DNA from: a virus
IMG/VR virus record: IMGVR_UViG_3300031227_000028
Span: 18,857 to 82,856 of that record
Reading direction: 5' to 3' (one strand)
DNA length: 64,000 bases
Under the pieces are notes generated by a model. The model did not search any database, was not told where the DNA came from, and saw only the letters and a list, made by a program, of their open reading frames with translations. Below are positions 7,496 through 49,546 of the stretch, in pieces; the stretch's first letter is position 1; every line of letters starts with the position of its first letter. The position numbers were made by a program, and so were the translations under genes.

Positions 7496-8764
7496 ATGAA
7501 AATAATAGCAACAATAATGGGACAAAATTGCGAAAAAACATTATCATTATGTTTAAAATCAGTTAAAGATTTCGATGGAATAGTTTATTTAGATGGTGGT
7601 AGTACTGATGATAGTAAATTAATAGCATTAGATTATGATTTAACAATAATTAATAATAAATTTGATAAAAGTAATCCAAATATGATAAGTATTCAAAGAA
7701 ATTATTATCTTAATTATCTTAAAAAAACATATAAAGAAGAATTAGAAGACGTTTTTATTTTAGTTCTTGATGCAGATGAATTTGTTTCAGAAGGAGCTTA
7801 TGAAATATTAAAAAATGATATAAAAAAATTAAAAAGCTATACTGAAGATGGTCAAGGTTTAATGTCAAATATCATAAGTCCAAAAATGCGACATCTTATA
7901 TATAATTTATCTTATGAAGATGCAACTAGAGAAACACATTTTGCACCTAATAGATTATTTAACTTAAAATTTGCTGATAAATATCCAAAAGGAGAACATG
8001 GGATTCTTAATAATTCTGGTACTAGTTATAAATATAGTGGAATTACTATATGGCATTTAGGTTATTTAGGAGGACCATGGGGAATTAAAAAAAGATATGA
8101 CCAACAAATACTTAGAAACACTGGTCACGCAAAACAATATTTAAAAGATTGGAATAAAGCTCATTTATTAGGACATTATCCAATTAAAAAAGTTAATGTT
8201 TTAGATTTACCAAAAATATTATTAGAAAATTTTAGTCTTGATAAAGACGAAATATATTTTGAAGGTAGAGGAATTGAAAGCAAACATTTTATTGATGCTA
8301 TAGATTGGAAAGAATTTTTTAAATGTAAAACAGCATATGAAATTGGTTGCGGAAGAGGTCCAAGAGTTTATGCATTAAATAATATTGGTGTTAAAACTTA
8401 TGGTTGTGATATTAATAAATGGGCTTGTGAGCATAAATTTCATGATAATATTGAACAAATGGATATTACTAAAATAAATTCTTGGAAAAATAAATATGAT
8501 TTAATAATTGCATATGATGTATTGGAACATATTGAAGAAAACGATTTATGGAGAGTAATTGATTATATGAAGTTTGGAACAAGAAAATATATTTTAATAT
8601 CTGTACCAGTAATTGGTGACCTAAATTTAGAAGCTGACCCTACTCATAAAATTAAACAAACAAAAGATTGGTGGATTAAAAAGTTTACAGATAGAGGATT
8701 TAAATTAATTGAAACACCACAACATTTTTTATATAGAAATCAATTAATGATATTTGAGGTTTAA
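7496..8764 (+). CDS. GT2 glycosyltransferase fused to class I SAM-dependent methyltransferase
   Basis: DGGSTD and LDADE in N-terminal half; EIGCGRG and DVLEHI in C-terminal half. Confidence 0.85.
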   Translation: MKIIATIMGQNCEKTLSLCLKSVKDFDGIVYLDGGSTDDSKLIALDYDLTIINNKFDKSNPNMISIQRNYYLNYLKKTYKEELEDVFILVLDADEFVSEGAYEILKNDIKKLKSYTEDGQGLMSNIISPKMRHLIYNLSYEDATRETHFAPNRLFNLKFADKYPKGEHGILNNSGTSYKYSGITIWHLGYLGGPWGIKKRYDQQILRNTGHAKQYLKDWNKAHLLGHYPIKKVNVLDLPKILLENFSLDKDEIYFEGRGIESKHFIDAIDWKEFFKCKTAYEIGCGRGPRVYALNNIGVKTYGCDINKWACEHKFHDNIEQMDITKINSWKNKYDLIIAYDVLEHIEENDLWRVIDYMKFGTRKYILISVPVIGDLNLEADPTHKIKQTKDWWIKKFTDRGFKLIETPQHFLYRNQLMIFEV

Positions 8765-8765
8765 A

Positions 8766-9074
8766 ATGAGCGAAGAAAAATATGTATGCGGAAAGCCAAT
8801 GAATGTTTGTAATGCTGATGGCATTAGCTCTGTAATGAATTATAGACTTAGAACAGAAAAACAAGAAAATTATAAAGATATCCTTGGAACTAGTTATTAT
8901 AAAAAGGAAGATGTTAATAATAATTGTATAAGAAACAAAAAATTATTAGAAGCGATACAAAAAATTAGAGATGATATACATAAATCTCATGGAGATAATT
9001 GTTATCGTGAAGATATGAATTATGTTGGTGCTGATGCTTTAGACGCATTAGAAGAAGAATTAGGTTTAAAATGA
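8766..9074 (+). CDS. Hypothetical protein
   Basis: GAGGT SD before ATG at 8766. Confidence 0.6.
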   Translation: MSEEKYVCGKPMNVCNADGISSVMNYRLRTEKQENYKDILGTSYYKKEDVNNNCIRNKKLLEAIQKIRDDIHKSHGDNCYREDMNYVGADALDALEEELGLK

Positions 9075-14273: not shown

Positions 14274-14291
14274 AAAACATTTATATATTAG
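14274..14291 (+). promoter_or_regulatory. TATA promoter of clamp/clamp-loader operon
   Basis: AAAACATTTATATATTAG. Confidence 0.65.
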
Positions 14292-27448: not shown

Positions 27449-27485
27449 TAAATAATATTATTTAATACAAACATTTATATATTAG
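27449..27485 (+). promoter_or_regulatory. tRNA operon A promoter (16-bp palindrome + TATA)
   Basis: TAAATAATATTATTTAATACAAACATTTATATATTAG, identical to 29030-29066. Confidence 0.85.
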
Positions 27486-27498
27486 TTGTTATATTATT

Positions 27499-27567
27499 AT
27501 GAATATGTATAAGACAACAAGTTTAACCAATATGTGTATGAGTAATTTATTACTTGCGTCATTTTAG
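27499..27567 (+). CDS. Putative leader peptide A, MNMYKTTSLTNMCMSNLLLASF
   Basis: Starts near the predicted TSS; 19/22 residues are M/N/L/S/A/T/C, the amino acids of operon A tRNAs. Confidence 0.65.
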   Translation: MNMYKTTSLTNMCMSNLLLASF

Positions 27568-27618
27568 TTATAACTATGTTGTTAAGCTTATTCTTTTTAT
27601 TTATCTGTTTAACAACAG
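27509..27618 (+). promoter_or_regulatory. Attenuator-like alternative hairpins, operon A
   Basis: ATAAG/CTTAT, ACAACA/TGTTGT, GAGTAA/TTACTT stem followed by U-tract; rival pairing TGTTGTTAA(27577)/TTAACAACA(27609). Confidence 0.6.
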
Positions 27619-27640
27619 GTTGAAATATATTAAAATTTAT

Positions 27641-27903: not shown

Positions 27904-28024
27904 ACGTGTGTGGCTGATTGGTAAAAGCGCTGGACTTAGAATGAAAATTCGTCTACAAGATGTTTTTACATAAGTTATCCAGTTTCCTAAGTGGATGTTG
28001 TGTGTTCAATTCATACCACACGTA
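27904..28024 (+). tRNA. tRNA-Leu(TAG) with 36-nt BHB intron (27941-27976)
   Basis: ACGTGTG/CACACGT; long variable arm; intron at 37/38 with CTTA/TAAG helix and GAA/TTA bulges. Confidence 0.9.
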
Positions 28025-28406: not shown

Positions 28407-28607
28407 ATGAGTTATGATAAAAATCATACAAAAGACGATTGTGATAAATGTCTTGAAAGGGTTGGAAAAGAAAATTTAACACCTATTAAGTTTTTATATC
28501 TTGATAGGAATGATTTAATGCATCCTGATTATTATCATAACGCAACTAAAGCACAAAAAGATTACAAATTATATTATGTTTGTAAAAATTGTTTAAAAAA
28601 TTATTAA
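28407..28607 (+). CDS. Small Zn-binding protein inside tRNA operon A
   Basis: CDKC...CKNC; exactly fills the Ala-Thr spacer. Confidence 0.65.
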   Translation: MSYDKNHTKDDCDKCLERVGKENLTPIKFLYLDRNDLMHPDYYHNATKAQKDYKLYYVCKNCLKNY

Positions 28608-28761: not shown

Positions 28762-29046
28762 ATGGTAAAATATAAAAAAAAATATGGGCATGAATATCCA
28801 ACATTAACAGTTCCAATGAAATCACTTCAAGAAGAAAATTTATTTATTAATCCTTATTGGAATGAATGGAATACTCAAAAAGATAGTTTAAGAGTTATAT
28901 GTGATAATAAAAAAATAGTTAAACAAAATAAAAATAGAATACATAAATTTTCAGTTTGGGATATTAGAGAAAAAGGAATACAAGAAAAAAATAAAAAAAA
29001 ATTAATTATAAGAAAGAAAAGAAAATTATTAAATAATATTATTTAA
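28762..29046 (+). CDS. Basic hypothetical protein (94 aa) ending operon A
   Basis: ATG 2 nt after tRNA-Cys; the track's upstream extension overlaps tRNAs. Confidence 0.6.
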   Translation: MVKYKKKYGHEYPTLTVPMKSLQEENLFINPYWNEWNTQKDSLRVICDNKKIVKQNKNRIHKFSVWDIREKGIQEKNKKKLIIRKKRKLLNNII

Positions 29047-29066
29047 TACAAACATTTATATATTAG
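29030..29066 (+). promoter_or_regulatory. tRNA operon B promoter (16-bp palindrome + TATA)
   Basis: 37/37 identical to 27449-27485. Confidence 0.85.
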
Positions 29067-29106
29067 ATATGGTTTTATATAATTATAATAAATAATCTTA
29101 ATATTA

Positions 29107-29304
29107 ATTTATTAAGAAATATTAAATAACTAGATAATTATAGGTGTTATCCCAATCATATTAAAATGAACATACAAGAATGGAGACAGGACGGGGAAAG
29201 AGGCTTTGACATAGTGTTTAAGCCTATCTATCGTTAGTCCTTCCATGGTTCATATCAATTTCTAAATAAATAAAAAAGAACATTGGCCATGTGCCATGGA
29301 ATTC
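29107..29304 (+). promoter_or_regulatory. Attenuator-like alternative hairpins, operon B
   Basis: ATGAAC/GTTCAT, ATGGA/TCCAT, AGGAC/GTCCT, AGGCTT/AAGCCT; rival pairing TTCCATGG(29241)/CCATGGAA(29294). Confidence 0.6.
29166..29237 (+). CDS. Putative leader peptide B, MNIQEWRQDGERGFDIVFKPIYR
   Basis: AAAATG context; residues 3-23 all belong to the operon B tRNA set. Confidence 0.65.
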   Translation: MNIQEWRQDGERGFDIVFKPIYR

Positions 29305-29318
29305 TAAAAAAAATATAC

Positions 29319-29389
29319 AGTCGTATAGTTTAATGGTAAAATTATCCGTTTACACCGGATGGCTATGAGTTCAATTCTCATTGCGACTA
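29319..29389 (+). tRNA. tRNA-Val(TAC)
   Basis: AGTCGTA/TGCGACT; TT TAC AC. Confidence 0.9.
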
Positions 29390-29403
29390 TAATAAACCTT
29401 TAT

Positions 29404-29476
29404 GCTCTAATGGTCTAGTGGACAATGACATCTGGCTTTCGACCAGAAGACCTGAGTTCAATTCTCGGTTGGGGTA
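29404..29476 (+). tRNA. tRNA-Glu(TTC)
   Basis: CT TTC GA; acceptor stem with three G:U pairs. Confidence 0.88.
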
Positions 29477-29482
29477 CTTTAC

Positions 29483-29557
29483 TGGGTGGTGGTCTAGTTT
29501 GGCTAAGACTCTCGACTTGGACTCGAGAAACCGGGGGTTCAAATCCTCCCCATCCAA
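29483..29557 (+). tRNA. tRNA-Pro(TGG)
   Basis: CTCGA-CT TGG AC-TCGAG; U1:A72; A37. Confidence 0.88.
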
Positions 29558-29567
29558 TATTTATTTT

Positions 29568-29639
29568 GCCTGTGTAGTGTAATGGCTATCACATGAGACT
29601 GTCTATCTCAAAATTTGGGTTCAATTCCCAGCATGGGCG
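29568..29639 (+). tRNA. tRNA-Asp(GTC)
   Basis: GCCTGTG/CATGGGC; G73; U37. Confidence 0.9.
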
Positions 29640-29643
29640 TTAT

Positions 29644-29718
29644 GGAAGTATAGCTTAATCTGGTTAAAGCACCGGTCTTATATACCGTTGAATCTGGGTT
29701 CAAATCCCAGTATTTCCA
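29644..29718 (+). tRNA. tRNA-Ile(TAT)
   Basis: GGAAGTA/TATTTCC; CT TAT AT. Confidence 0.9.
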
Positions 29719-29723
29719 TTTAT

Positions 29724-29796
29724 GGACGTATGGCTAAGTGGTTAAGGCAGTCGACTGATATTCGAAAGAACACCGGTTCAAATCCGGTTATGTCCA
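29724..29796 (+). tRNA. tRNA-Ile(GAT)
   Basis: GGACGTA/TATGTCC; CT GAT AT. Confidence 0.9.
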
Positions 29797-29802
29797 TTTT
29801 AT

Positions 29803-29912
29803 GCACCCATAGTCTAAACTGGAAGGGCTCTTGGCTTCGATACAATTGTATGGCTAGTAAGACGCTTTTTTGAAGATACCAAGGTATCCGGGTTCAAATC
29901 CCGGTGGGTGCT
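29803..29912 (+). tRNA. tRNA-Arg(TCG) with 37-nt BHB-like intron (29841-29877)
   Basis: GCACCCA/TGGGTGC; intron at 37/38 with CTTC/GAAG helix and GAT/ATA bulges. Confidence 0.88.
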
Positions 29913-29917
29913 TTTAT

Positions 29918-29991
29918 GTGAATGTAGCAAAACGGTTTAATGCACTCGACTTTTAATCGAGAGACTGAGGGTTCAAATCCCTTCATTCACA
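29918..29991 (+). tRNA. tRNA-Lys(TTT)
   Basis: GTGAATG/CATTCAC; CT TTT AA. Confidence 0.93.
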
Positions 29992-29998
29992 TTTTTAT

Positions 29999-30071
29999 AG
30001 GGTAGTGGTCTAGTGGACAATGACATCTGACTTTGGATCAGAAAACGGCAGTTCAATTCTGCCCTACCCCA
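29999..30071 (+). tRNA. tRNA-Gln(TTG)
   Basis: CT TTG GA; A1-C72 mismatch. Confidence 0.9.
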
Positions 30072-30076
30072 TAATT

Positions 30077-30148
30077 GCTTGCATAGCATAACGGTTAATG
30101 CTTCAGGTTGTGGTCCTGATAATCTGGGTTCAATTCCCAGTGTAAGCT
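30077..30148 (+). tRNA. tRNA-His(GTG)
   Basis: GCTTGCA/TGTAAGC; no encoded G-1; U73. Confidence 0.9.
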
Positions 30149-30155
30149 TTTTAAT

Positions 30156-30228
30156 GGACATATAGCATAATGGGAGTGCGCTGAGCTGAAGCCTCAGTAT
30201 TGTTGGAGTTCGACTCTCCATATGTCCA
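30156..30228 (+). tRNA. tRNA-Phe(GAA)
   Basis: GGACATA/TATGTCC; CT GAA GC. Confidence 0.92.
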
Positions 30229-30238
30229 TCATATTAAA

Positions 30239-30745
30239 ATGGCATACGAACTATATAAAATAAAAAAGGATAAAGAAAATTATTTTAAAGATTGGTCTAG
30301 TGATAAACTTTTAACTTTAACTGACGAAATAAAAGAAGTAGTCTATAAAAAGTATTTAGTTAAATGTGATGTTTTTAAAAGAGATAATTATAGTTGTCAA
30401 AATATTAATTGTAAAAATTTAAATAGTCCATTAACAATGCATCATGTTAAATTTCAAAAAAATGGTGGAGAACATAAAATAAAAAATTGTGTAACTTTAT
30501 GTGAACCATGTCACGTTTTATTTCATAGAGCTAGAACAGCAATTACTTATAAAAATAATAAATATCTTCCTATTCATATTAGAGGTAAAACTTTTATGTT
30601 AGATAGACAAGATAAAATTAACTGGAAAGAAATTAAAAGTCATATGAGAAAACTTAGAAAAACTTTAAGAAAAGAAAGAATTTATTTAAGTTGGAAAGAT
30701 ATGAATTTATTAATGAAATTTTTAGAATTAAATTTTGAAGATTAG
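30239..30745 (+). CDS. HNH endonuclease inserted in tRNA operon B
   Basis: VFKRDNYSCQ...C, TMHHV...GG...NCVTLCEPCH...H; start moved to the ATG after tRNA-Phe. Confidence 0.85.
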   Translation: MAYELYKIKKDKENYFKDWSSDKLLTLTDEIKEVVYKKYLVKCDVFKRDNYSCQNINCKNLNSPLTMHHVKFQKNGGEHKIKNCVTLCEPCHVLFHRARTAITYKNNKYLPIHIRGKTFMLDRQDKINWKEIKSHMRKLRKTLRKERIYLSWKDMNLLMKFLELNFED

Positions 30746-30750
30746 TTTAT

Positions 30751-30825
30751 GTATCTGTAGTGTAGTTTGGTCTATCATCTGGGACTTCCAATTCTGGGAC
30801 GTGGGTTCGAATCCCACCGGGTACA
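30751..30825 (+). tRNA. tRNA-Gly(TCC)
   Basis: GTATCTG/CGGGTAC; A73; G:U-rich anticodon stem. Confidence 0.85.
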
Positions 30826-30832
30826 TTTTTAA

Positions 30833-30903
30833 CCGCTCGAGATATTTGGTAATCATACGAGGCTGTAACCCTTGTTCTATCGGTTCAATTCCGGTCGGGT
30901 GGA
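30833..30903 (+). tRNA. tRNA-Tyr(GTA), archaeal/eukaryal type
   Basis: C1:G72, A73, short variable loop; A8. Confidence 0.88.
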
Positions 30904-30911
30904 TTTTTAAT

Positions 30912-30984
30912 GGGCTGTTGGTGAAATCTGGTATCATATTTGGCTCCAGACCAAATGTTATGGGTTCAAATCCCATGCAACCCA
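30912..30984 (+). tRNA. tRNA-Trp(CCA)
   Basis: TTTGG-CT CCA GA-CCAAA; A73. Confidence 0.9.
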
Positions 30985-31020
30985 TATATAAAAGCTTTAT
31001 AAAGGCTTTATAAACCCTTT

Positions 31021-32858: not shown

Positions 32859-34220
32859 ATGAGAGAAAAGATAAAAATTCCAGATAATGTAACAAATATT
32901 ATGTCTCACCTTATAGCTCATGGTTATGATGCATATATTATTGGTGGGGCAATAAGAGATTACTTTCTTGGAATAATTCCTCACGATTGGGATTTATTTA
33001 CAAATTGTCCTGACTTAGTTAATGAGTTTCCAGAAGGAAATGTAATTGGTGGAGAAGAAAGACAAGCAAAGATTTTAACTGTGATAGTGGACGGAATAGA
33101 AGTATCACAATATCGAGCAAATGGTGAACGAACAGAAGTAGGAAATGATTTGGAAACTCATTTATCTACTTGTGATTATAATATCAATGCAATGGCATGT
33201 GATATAAATGGAAACATCATAGATTTACATGGTGGAATATTTGATTTAAAACATTGGACATTTGAATTTGTTGGTGATGGAAACCAAAGAATAAAAGAAG
33301 ACCCTCTACGAATATTAAGAGGTATAAGACTTATTCTGAAGAACCGATTACATCCAAGCCTGGAAACAGAAACAATTTTAGAAGAGAATGGTATTAAGTT
33401 ATATGAGTTACCAAAAGAAAGAATCCGAGAAGAATTTCTTAAACTTTTAAAATATGAAAAATGTTTTGATATATTAAAAGAATTTGAATTGTTAAAATAT
33501 ATCATTCCAGATATTGAAAAGTCATATAACATGAACGGTGGCGATTATCATGATGAAACTGTTTTTGAACACATGAATTATTCATTTAAAGAAGCTTGTA
33601 AGATAACTGATAATGTATTTTTTAGATTAGCTGCAGGACTTCATGATTTTGGTAAGATTTCTGCTATATCAAGAACAGTATTAATTGACCCTAGAACTAT
33701 GAGAGCTATAGAAGATTCAAAGACACATTTCTATGAGCATGAAAGAATTGGTGCAGAAAAAATTGAAGAATGGATGAGAGAATATAAATTTGCTGAAAAG
33801 GAAATTAAATATGTTGTTACTTTAGTGCGAACTCATATGTGGGCTTGGACTGAAACAATTTCAAAACGGTCTTATATCAAACATTTCAAGAAATTTGAAG
33901 ATGCAGATATTGATATTATGGATTTTGTTACTATGACTTATTGCGACAATCAAGGTAATATGAAAAACTCTAGAATTAAATTTGCTGATTGGGTAAGAGA
34001 TAGTCCAATTCATAAAAAATATTATGAGTTAAAACATACTAATGAACCATTTTCAGTTAAAGATTTAGCAGTTGGCGGTAAAGATTTAATTCAATTAGGA
34101 TTTAAACCTGGACCAGAAATGGGAAAACTTTTAAAAAAACTTTTTGAAAAAGTAATGATATGTGAAATTAAAAATGATAAACGTGAATTAATTACATTTT
34201 TAAAAGAATTTAAGGAATGA
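32859..34220 (+). CDS. cca: Class II tRNA nucleotidyltransferase (CCA-adding) with HD domain
   Basis: GGAIRD...DWD, D.NINAMA, EDPLRILR, ERI, LHDFGK, GGKDL...G..PG. Confidence 0.88.
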   Translation: MREKIKIPDNVTNIMSHLIAHGYDAYIIGGAIRDYFLGIIPHDWDLFTNCPDLVNEFPEGNVIGGEERQAKILTVIVDGIEVSQYRANGERTEVGNDLETHLSTCDYNINAMACDINGNIIDLHGGIFDLKHWTFEFVGDGNQRIKEDPLRILRGIRLILKNRLHPSLETETILEENGIKLYELPKERIREEFLKLLKYEKCFDILKEFELLKYIIPDIEKSYNMNGGDYHDETVFEHMNYSFKEACKITDNVFFRLAAGLHDFGKISAISRTVLIDPRTMRAIEDSKTHFYEHERIGAEKIEEWMREYKFAEKEIKYVVTLVRTHMWAWTETISKRSYIKHFKKFEDADIDIMDFVTMTYCDNQGNMKNSRIKFADWVRDSPIHKKYYELKHTNEPFSVKDLAVGGKDLIQLGFKPGPEMGKLLKKLFEKVMICEIKNDKRELITFLKEFKE

Positions 34221-47945: not shown

Positions 47946-49546
47946 TAGAAAATCACCTGTCCATTTCCACTATCTAATAAAGCTGTTGATATATCTGTAT
48001 CAACAAAAATTGTATCATAATATTTATCTTCAAAAGTATTATTATAATTAAAAATTTCTAGTGTAGATAATACAGGAGTATATGTGGAATCATATGTTAT
48101 CATATCGTTACCTGCTTGACCAAAAGTTGAATTTCCAAATAAAAATACACTCCCACTAGCTGCACTATAATCTTTTTTAGTTAAAATAAATTTTTTTACT
48201 AAAACATTAATATCATTATATGAAGTTTCAAGTCTAGTTATAAAATCTGGAATACCAGTATCACCAGTTTGTATTTTTCTAATATCGTTAATTATTTGTT
48301 TTAATGTATCAGTTAATCCTTTAATTTTTTGAGACAAACTTATTGTAACAACATTACCACTATAACTTGTTTTAGTATTAAATTTATAAACTACTTTATT
48401 AATTTCATAAGTATTATTATTTTCGTTTTGTTTTGGTAAATTAACTAAAATTGTATTACCTGGGACTAAATATTCTATACCATTTGAAATTAATATACCT
48501 TCCATAAGTGCATCAGCACTTTCTTTAATAATTTGTTTAGCTCTATCTCTTGCTTCAACAGGGTCAGTAATTTCTTTATCAGTAATTACTTGTTCTTTTC
48601 TACCATATGAAATAACTGAACTACTATCTTGAGCAAATTTAACTATAGCTTGTCCTCTATCATAATCAATTGTAAATGCTTCTCCAGATGTTGGAATATT
48701 ATAACCTGAAGCAGTTCCTGAAACAAAAACAATATTACTATTACTAAAATCTACTAGATATTGAACACCAGATAAAGCTCCTTCATTAGTAGCATTTAAA
48801 ATACCACCATTAAGATGAGTTCCACTAACATTAACATCTGTGTTATATGGTGAATAAGTTAAACTATATTCTGAACCACCATTAGCAATAAAATCTTGTG
48901 TTGGAACTTTTGTGAATATTTTAGAACCATAAACCCAAACTCTATTAATAACTTCATCATCATTAACTTGAAAATTTGAACTTATTATATTAGTACTATC
49001 TAAAGTAACACCAGACGAAATTGAACCTTTTAATTCAAAATGTAAATCTCCATCTACATCTACATAAAAATAAAATCCTGCAAGTTCGGCTAATCTTTTT
49101 AAAGCATCAAAAACAGATGTATGATTAAATTGAATTTTATCTATTTCAATTCCAGTAGCATTAACATTATTAGTAGTTAATTCTGGAACATCTCCCATAA
49201 GTGATAAAACTATTGCACTAATTTCTGTATTATTAAAAATAACAGGCTCAACAGTTGAATCAATTAAAATAGTACCTTTATCTTTTCCAGATATTGTAAT
49301 AGTACCTGTATTTTCATTAGCCATATTACCAATGTCATCTACATTACCTTTAAAAATTTTTGTAGTATTTGAATAAATTTCTATTTCGTCATTAATAGTA
49401 AAATCATCTTTTCTAATTCCAGCACCACTATCAAATATAGCTTTAAAATTAGATACTGAATTATATTCTCCTCTACTATTAAAGATAGTTAAATCTTTAG
49501 ATTGAAAATACTCTACTCCATTTAAATATAATTTACCAATTATCAA
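47945..49546 (-). CDS. Baseplate hub/tail-tip protein
   Basis: Follows tape measure; IFKG.V, ISGKD, LAELAGFYFYVDVDGDLHF, NRVWVYG, YG..E; TTG start with GGTGA SD. Confidence 0.7.
   Translation of the reverse strand: MIIGKLYLNGVEYFQSKDLTIFNSRGEYNSVSNFKAIFDSGAGIRKDDFTINDEIEIYSNTTKIFKGNVDDIGNMANENTGTITISGKDKGTILIDSTVEPVIFNNTEISAIVLSLMGDVPELTTNNVNATGIEIDKIQFNHTSVFDALKRLAELAGFYFYVDVDGDLHFELKGSISSGVTLDSTNIISSNFQVNDDEVINRVWVYGSKIFTKVPTQDFIANGGSEYSLTYSPYNTDVNVSGTHLNGGILNATNEGALSGVQYLVDFSNSNIVFVSGTASGYNIPTSGEAFTIDYDRGQAIVKFAQDSSSVISYGRKEQVITDKEITDPVEARDRAKQIIKESADALMEGILISNGIEYLVPGNTILVNLPKQNENNNTYEINKVVYKFNTKTSYSGNVVTISLSQKIKGLTDTLKQIINDIRKIQTGDTGIPDFITRLETSYNDINVLVKKFILTKKDYSAASGSVFLFGNSTFGQAGNDMITYDSTYTPVLSTLEIFNYNNTFEDKYYDTIFVDTDISTALLDSGNGQVIF

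Follow-up and report, generated by a model that had tools for sequence, protein, structure and literature searches.

Genome, tRNA array and promoters

The source record is a complete IMG/VR virus genome of 82,856 bp with direct terminal repeats and about 20% GC, originating from salt-lake metagenomes. The analysis covers a window of 64,000 nucleotides of this record, and all coordinates given are those of the window unless another sequence is named. The genome encodes a tape-measure protein, an RFC-type clamp loader, a YhhQ transporter, two TGT/DpdA-like proteins and a CCA-adding enzyme, and a similar gene set has been reported for haloarchaeal tailed viruses such as HGTV-1 (PMC8651126). AGGTG or GGAG motifs stand 6-9 nt 5' of the ATG in genes of this virus. 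ARAGORN and Rfam together place 22 tRNA genes, all on the + strand, between 27640 and 30985, and these cover all 20 amino acids. Two of them, tRNA-Leu(TAG) (27904-28024, + strand) and tRNA-Arg(TCG) (29803-29912, + strand), were found with ARAGORN -i to carry introns of 36 and 37 nt, respectively, at the canonical 37/38 position. Introns at this position are of the archaeal/eukaryal type and not of the bacterial group I type, and they are therefore an argument for an archaeal host that must splice the viral tRNAs. Taken with the BRE/TATA promoters and the RFC-type clamp loader, they lead us to regard the host as most likely archaeal and the virus as probably a tailed virus of archaea. Within the Arg precursor, a 4-bp helix (CUUC/GAAG) with 3-nt bulges on either side is BHB-like in appearance. 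The CCA-adding enzyme is of class II (PolyA_pol-type, with an HD domain; 32859-34220) and adjoins the tRNA array, and none of the tRNAs inspected by eye encodes its 3' CCA. Its best public homologues are 51% identical, and most of them come from contigs that have not been binned, several of these being 80-100 kb long; cellular genomes give matches of at most 36% identity, and distant homologues are present in HGTV-1 and Acidianus tailed spindle virus.

A repeat search identified a 49-nt promoter cassette (cassette B, 29030-29078, + strand) which is 90% identical to 27449-27497, and the two copies divide the tRNAs into operon A and operon B. Operon A consists of eight tRNAs (Met, Asn, Leu, Ser, Ser, Ala, Thr, Cys). 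Operon B (29319-30985, + strand; ARAGORN and Rfam) consists of fourteen, in the order Val, Glu, Pro, Asp, Ile(TAT), Ile(GAT), Arg(TCG, with intron), Lys, Gln, His and Phe, followed after an HNH endonuclease ORF by Gly, Tyr and Trp. Cassette B includes a BRE/TATA-like 14-mer, AAACATTTATATAT (29050-29063), exact copies of which begin at 14275, 16533, 27469 and 29050, each time with + strand genes downstream. Archaeal TATA-to-start spacing predicts a transcription start near 29086. The approximately 230 nt from promoter B to tRNA-Val (29319) are referred to here as leader B, and 29088-29318 was taken as the transcribed stretch.

Leader ORF B and the tRNAs downstream

The first AUG of the predicted transcript (29166-29168) opens a reading frame of 23 codons plus TAG, MNIQEWRQDGERGFDIVFKPIYR (leader ORF B, 29166-29237, + strand). 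Tested against the tRNA set of operon B, 21 of its 22 non-start residues and 19 of its 22 codons are served by operon-B tRNAs, and a codon is present for 13 of the 14 downstream tRNAs, His being the one absent. Among the 463 short ATG ORFs in the six frames of the 82.9-kb genome, leader ORF B ranked first for operon-B amino acids, and in the same set the ORF ahead of operon A (leader ORF A) ranked first for operon-A amino acids, with a match of 18/21 residues. Both first ranks were kept under four other ORF definitions, with the exception that leader A was second in the widest of them. The true 7/13 split of amino acids between the operons accounts for 39 of 43 residues and is the single best of 77,520 partitions, this being the number of ways of choosing 7 of 20 amino acids. 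Among stop-free shuffles of the ORF nucleotides, 2 of 7226 equalled the match of B and 0 of 4832 that of A.

The match extends to the level of codons. In a test which lets U34 read whole family boxes, codon coverage relative to genome codon usage was 13/14 for leader ORF B (p ~3e-4) and 8/8 for leader ORF A (p ~1e-3). The rare codons CGT, ATC and CTT occur in the leader ORFs for Arg(TCG), Ile(GAT) and Leu(TAG), and both members of the isoacceptor pairs are sampled, ATA and ATC for the two Ile tRNAs and AGT and TCA for the two Ser tRNAs. The common codons AGA and TTA, unread by viral tRNAs, also occur in the leaders; in leader ORF B, AGA is present twice, outside the reading of the operon's Arg(TCG) tRNA. 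Rare codons (relative use 0.11 or less) make up 10 of the 22 in leader ORF B, and its GC3 is 45% (10/22 G/C-ending codons) compared with 9.8% genome-wide. Nine of these ten third positions take part in base pairs of the closed fold described below, a suggestive overlap of coding and structure, with the qualification that fold prediction favours G/C pairing anyway. On these statistics it is very unlikely that leader ORF B is accidental.

Read-through of the TAG to gain a His codon was considered and rejected, since the extension brings in amino acids outside the operon-B set. A second mini-ORF, MVHINF (ATG GTT CAT ATC AAT TTC TAA, 29245-29265), starts 7 nt past the leader-B stop, inside region 2 of the fold; it holds the only His codon, that of the operon-B tRNA left unsampled by the main ORF, and may be a product of chance. 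Leader ORF A (27565-27567), leader ORF B (29235-29237) and the mini-ORF of HGTV-1 described below all stop at TAG, a codon used less than the other stops in the genome of the leader-B virus, where it ends 10 of the 91 ORFs with at least 80 aa. The TTT-TAG end of the leader A and HGTV-1 ORFs gives a T4/T5 run at the stop.

Start context of leader ORF B

No Shine-Dalgarno motif was found at normal spacing before leader ORF B; an AGGTG is present 20 nt from the AUG, which is too far for a normal Shine-Dalgarno interaction. The start context ATCATATTAAAATG (29155-29168, + strand) is identical over 14 nt to that at the start of the HNH endonuclease ORF (30228-30241), a gene supported by Pfam. Because leader ORF B and the HNH gene have this 14-nt context in common, the missing Shine-Dalgarno motif is no argument against translation, and non-Shine-Dalgarno initiation on processed or short-leader mRNAs seems to be normal in this virus. 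An internal TATA-like box (29136-29143) which would make the ORF leaderless is possible and was given no weight, such AT-rich strings being common here.

Other ORFs of the array, at 28407, 28762 and 30240, begin 9, 1 and 9 nt after tRNA-Ala, tRNA-Cys and tRNA-Phe, respectively, and in HGTV-1 several ORFs begin 1-4 nt after a tRNA. This arrangement suggests that tRNA 3' processing yields leaderless or short-leader mRNAs, a form of tRNA punctuation. The succession of a GATAAT/GTTATC hairpin, CCA and ATCATATTAAAATG in leader B (29133-29168) parallels the T-arm/acceptor end of tRNA-Phe with the same 14-mer ahead of the HNH gene (30205-30241), and the 5' part of leader B may be derived from, or mimic, a tRNA 3' end.

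Competing folds of leader B

Leader B had been described in the first-pass annotation as a GC-rich switchable hairpin, and GC content at 29150-29299 is indeed 36-40% compared with 9-25% in the flanks, a local GC island. Its segments, all on the + strand, are as follows from the 5' end. An AU-rich outer arm (29107-29120) pairs in the closed form with 29258-29271, as seen in constrained folds; this arm has low information content in a genome of 20% GC, and in the open form its 3' partner lies in the A-rich loop and the stem of another hairpin, formed by regions 2 and 3. A 5'-UTR hairpin (29133-29151; GATAAT/GTTATC, with AGGTG in the loop and then CCA) is present in both predicted conformers (z -1.65). 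Region 1 (29166-29192), defined by constrained folds, comprises codons 1-9 with the motifs ATGAAC, ATGGA and AGGAC, and forms the 5' arm of the closed hairpin. The remainder of the ORF forms an apical hairpin (29193-29236; AGGCTT at 29201 with AAGCCT at 29220, and GACA/TGTT), again in both conformers (z -2.6). Region 2, GTCCTTCCATGGTTCAT (29237-29253), begins at the G of the stop codon and is the shared segment, pairing with either region 1 or region 3. Region 3, AGAACATTGGCCATGTGCCATGGAATTCT (29277-29305), either forms a 9+3+5+4 bp pairing with region 2 or makes a hairpin of its own (TGGC at 29284 with GCCA at 29293). A single-stranded A-rich linker without a T-run (29306-29318) leads to the first tRNA.

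The four helices and the outer pairing named in the first-pass annotation were all recovered, with coordinates within one base: in addition to the apical AGGCTT/AAGCCT helix, ATGAAC (29166) pairs with GTTCAT (29248), ATGGA (29180) with TCCAT (29242), AGGAC (29188) with GTCCT (29237), and ATTTATT-AGAAAT (29107-29120) with ATTTCT-AATAAAT (29258-29271). The alternative pairing which it had proposed, between TTCCATGG (29241) and CCATGGAA (29294) in competition with TGGC/GCCA, is likewise present. In silico, the closed form (region 1:2, with the AUG paired) and the open form (region 2:3) are mutually exclusive.

Measured against dinucleotide shuffles, the 2:3 hairpin (29241-29301) has a z-score of -3.9, with 0 of 300 shuffles as good, the whole leader (29088-29318) a z-score of -3.4, and the long hairpin at 29167-29253 a z-score of -2.8, equalled by 1% of shuffles. 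The duplex of region 2 with the downstream segment (-16.2 kcal/mol) was reached by 0 of 2000 shuffles. The region 1:2 duplex (-14.4 to -14.7 kcal/mol) was matched by 3-11% of shuffles and is weakly above chance, and when the peptide was held fixed and synonymous codons were drawn uniformly, 7.4% of versions folded as well. The minus strand folds almost as well as the plus strand (z -1.9 versus -2.05).

On 29105-29318 the two folds are near-isoenergetic, at -42.1 kcal/mol for the closed and -43.0 kcal/mol for the open form. Over the full leader, the ensemble with the 1:2 helix has a free energy of -47.5 kcal/mol and that with the 2:3 helix one of -52.4 kcal/mol, which puts the closed fold about 5 kcal/mol behind and its probability at equilibrium near zero. 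In nascent transcripts, the closed form is the minimum free energy (MFE) structure for 3' ends at about 29255-29290, and the prediction flips to 2:3 once approximately 29296-29300 has been made. The claim that the leader buries its own start codon is thus borne out by the predictions for these nascent ends but not at equilibrium, where the buried form is a minority state; burial of the start codon is accordingly predicted to be transient and not the resting state.

The first-pass annotation had also noted that no clear U-tract follows, and there is no T-run of four or more between 29077 and 29563. Nor is there a hairpin-plus-U terminator between leader ORF B and the tRNAs, where the 4-bp TGGC/GCCA hairpin leads into an A-rich stretch. 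With no such T-run, leader B is not a classical terminator-type attenuator.

Searches for known RNA families and for relatives

An Rfam/Infernal search, which had been suggested as a means of excluding a known non-coding RNA, gave no family match at leader B. With Rfam 15 over the window, T-box, tmRNA and archaeal sRNA families included, the tRNAs alone passed the gathering score, and at 28950-29400 with E up to 10 the matches were far-sub-threshold noise alone (mir-392, at 19 bits against 62, and STnc480). ARAGORN reported no tRNA at 29100-29318. Several other identities were considered and rejected. A tRNA-like element or a split or permuted tRNA would have a T-arm or acceptor, neither of which is present, and both ARAGORN and Rfam were negative. 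For an H/ACA or C/D sRNA, boxes were not seen by eye and Rfam gave no match, and T-box-like tRNA binding was set aside as there was no model match. A BHB-excised ring was judged by the presence of two 3-nt bulges on opposite strands with a 4-bp helix between them; a single 3-nt bulge (GAC, 29185-29187) is present in the closed hairpin, and the opposite strand shows none at a distance of 4 bp.

Relatives of the locus were sought by several routes. An exact 20-mer of the hairpin had 0 matches in IMG/VR, a promoter 20-mer matched four contigs, all unrelated, and two tRNA-based patterns had 0 matches. A single-query search with the CCA-adding enzyme yielded no relatives; with a profile of this enzyme, relatives 39-50% identical were found which have 0-5 tRNAs and no similar DNA, and scans of metagenomes and genomes with the CCA profile gave viral-like matches of at most 56% identity without nearby tRNAs and bacterial cellular matches of at most 36%. 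The best match in the PolB search was 27% identical. Among cultured phages there was no match to the leader or to PolB, and the array gave isolated tRNA-sized matches alone. When leader B was compared with the contigs of the three salt-lake DNA runs that cover it (a fourth, X7, has no depth there), no difference was listed, and these runs therefore supply neither variation nor covariation. Among the runs, X2-X7 include contigs in which similar tRNAs adjoin flanks of different sequence. In a 111-kb related virus whose CCA enzyme is 50% identical, about 500 nt upstream of tRNA-Pro/tRNA-Trp (its 8380-8870) looked non-coding and structured by reading alone.

Leader A and the HGTV-1 spacer

Leader A (27499-27639, + strand) stands ahead of operon A and was characterized by the same ORF statistics and constrained folds. 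Its ORF, MNMYKTTSLTNMCMSNLLLASF (27499-27567), is followed first by a post-stop segment and then by a downstream copy, with a T5 run (27594) between these two pairing segments. The post-stop segment pairs either with the 5' part of the ORF (p=0.008) or with the downstream copy (p=0.0007). The three-region layout is common to leaders A and B, the sequences are unrelated, and region 3 mimics region 1 in both, which agrees with the observation in the first-pass annotation that the geometry of leader B matches that of leader A. One contig of DNA run X2 carries a variant of leader A (window 27570-27634) with six substitutions and three single-base indels; all changes are 3' of the ORF-A stop, and there are none in the part of the ORF covered (27540-27567).

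In HGTV-1 a 183-nt spacer (NC_021328.1 48621-48803) separates tRNA-Lys from a block of tRNAs for Gln-Trp-Ser-Ile-Ser-Gln-Ile. The spacer holds a TATA box, CGAAAGATTTATATA, and some 30 nt later an unannotated 20-codon ORF, MTSRCSIQSSQISWSQISTF, which ends in TAG (48691-48753, minus strand) and matches the tRNA block that comes next. Fourteen of its 19 residues are drawn from Q, W, S and I (p=2.6e-7), its rank among the 397 short ORFs in 54 kb is 1 (z=5.4 versus 3.6 for the next), and its codons TCG (x3), AGT (x2), CAA (x2), CAG, TGG, ATT (x2) and ATC fit the anticodons of the block. Its start codon is paired within an 11-bp hairpin, a strong hairpin follows the stop, and an alternative UGGAG/CUCCA hairpin abuts a U5 run overlapping the TAG. 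In a search for relatives of this leader, HGTV-1 itself was the sole match.

This mini-ORF and leader B are alike in having a TATA-type promoter, a tRNA-matched short ORF ending in TAG, a start codon within a hairpin and a strong hairpin downstream of the stop. They are unlike in sequence, which is unrelated, in that the HGTV-1 mRNA is near-leaderless, and in the U5 run, which leader B does not have. HGTV-1 is moreover a high-GC haloarchaeal virus, unlike the virus of leader B. The HGTV-1 mini-ORF is independent support for test ORFs as a real feature of archaeal-virus tRNA arrays.

Proposed mechanism and alternative explanations

Taken together, these results indicate that leader B is probably a real, translated regulatory leader. 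The reading we favour, to which we give a probability of about 0.45, is that 29088-29318 is the 5' leader of tRNA operon B, with a translated test ORF and two folds, and acts as a ribosome-read sensor of decoding capacity. The test frame (29166-29237) would sample those amino acids and codons for which the 14 tRNAs directly downstream provide, and the position and speed of the ribosome on these test codons would set the partner of region 2 while the leader is being synthesized. With no ribosome, the nascent RNA would close 1:2 first. A ribosome slow or stalled on codons 1-9 would occupy region 1, and region 2 would then pair with region 3. In constrained folds, a ribosome at the stop would cover region 2 and leave region 3 to fold on itself. 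Lacking a terminator, the leader must act otherwise than by classical termination: it may gate its own translation, affect the lifetime or processing of the precursor, or lead to factor-dependent termination.

A wider proposal, more tentative than that for leader B itself, is that archaeal tailed viruses, this one and HGTV-1 among them, gauge the decoding of specific codons by means of promoter-proximal test ORFs and tune their own tRNA genes, with leader B doing so through a terminator-less fold change.

The main rival to the ribosome-read sensor is that the mini-ORF is translated and nothing switches, the 2:3 hairpin being a fixed element such as a processing signal or a 3' stabiliser of the leader mini-mRNA after the RNase P cut at tRNA-Val. 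Pairing between regions 1 and 2 would then be incidental and helped by CCATGG palindromes, and the statistical weakness of this pairing fits such a view, as do the dominance of the 2:3 fold in the equilibrium ensemble, the fact that 2:3 is the sole pairing with strong statistics, and the lack of a terminator for a switch to control. It does not account for the repetition of the three-region design in leader A with a significant 1:2 pairing (p=0.008), for the mimicry of region 1 by region 3 in both leaders, or for the closed form being the MFE over about 40 nt of transcription, and we consider it less probable than the sensor, at about one chance in four.

Translation could also serve a purpose other than sensing, with a ribosome travelling behind RNA polymerase protecting the AU-rich leader from factor-dependent termination or decay, or with a functional peptide as the product. 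An ORF that stands behind a recurring promoter and opens at the first AUG of the predicted transcript would suit such a role, and ORFs of the array generally sit right after processing sites. This explanation appears distinctly improbable, however, as it does not account for the use, in each leader, of exactly those amino acids and codons that the tRNAs behind it serve, or for the parallel case of HGTV-1, and 10 rare codons in 22 would be odd for a peptide gene.

It is less probable still that leader B is a stand-alone stable structured RNA cut out together with the tRNAs and that its ORF is accidental. The tRNA cluster of phage T4 yields small stable RNAs of this kind (species 1/2), and the GC island, with its tRNA-like GC content, lies in a tRNA array on the same strand, has significant fold z-scores and lacks a Shine-Dalgarno motif. 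Against this stand the statistics relating the ORF to the tRNA set, the lack of an Rfam match and the presence of two competing folds where one dominant fold would be expected.

Chance, by which a GC-rich patch in AT-rich flanks would give spurious helices and a spurious ORF, could draw on the cheapness of AU-rich outer helices at 20% GC and on the folding of the minus strand but is strongly disfavoured by the joint first ranks of both leaders, the best score of 77,520 partitions, the 0 of 2000 shuffles for 2:3 and the repeated promoter.

Significance and comparison with known systems

Why viruses carry tRNA genes, and how these are regulated, is an open question on which leader B bears. A 2026 paper on HGTV-1 titles its section on viral tRNAs 'of unknown function' and makes no mention of leaders or promoters (PMC13532342). 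A leader ORF that samples exactly the downstream tRNAs suggests a feedback loop in which the virus tests decoding and adjusts supply. Sensing by leader peptides is textbook knowledge for bacterial amino-acid operons; our literature searches turned up neither an account of tRNA genes controlled by a leader peptide nor one of such leaders in archaea. Were the wider proposal above to hold, leader B would be the first case in the archaeal domain of a leader that senses through the ribosome, and the first such leader on tRNA genes. Termination follows other rules in archaea and does not generally depend on hairpins, so a terminator-less version there would suggest a new output mechanism. HGTV-1, with its mini-ORF in a cultured virus-host pair, makes the idea directly testable; its host is Halogranum roseipondis SS5-1, and the course of infection has been described (PMC13532342).

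The closest parallels are the multivalent leader-peptide attenuators of enterobacterial amino-acid operons (thrL, ilvL/ilvGMEDA and ilvBN), alongside trpL, hisL, leuL and pheL. Leader B has in common with these a short ORF rich in codons that report on the operon's supply, overlapping 1:2 and 2:3 pairings, and the position of the ribosome as presumed input. It differs from them in being without a 3:4 terminator hairpin and U-tract and in that the regulated genes are tRNAs and not biosynthetic enzymes. Instead of repeating one amino acid, leader ORF B uses 12 different ones once or twice each, and its host is probably an archaeon. The leaders of ermC and cat, which act by translational attenuation, sense a drug-stalled ribosome and thereby make the ribosome-binding site of the protein gene behind them accessible. 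As in leader B, a leader peptide is combined with a hairpin rearrangement, no terminator is needed and the start region is sequestered in one conformer; unlike in ermC/cat, nothing translatable follows leader B, only tRNAs. End-to-end closed mRNAs are known from the fbi/tac pairing of hok mRNA and the 5'/3' pairing of B. subtilis hbs, where the closure surrounds ordinary protein genes and presumably acts on stability or translation. In these mRNAs, as in leader B, the beginning of the ORF is paired with the sequence immediately downstream of its stop codon, but leader B alone combines such closure with the matching of codons to tRNAs and with a competing third segment.
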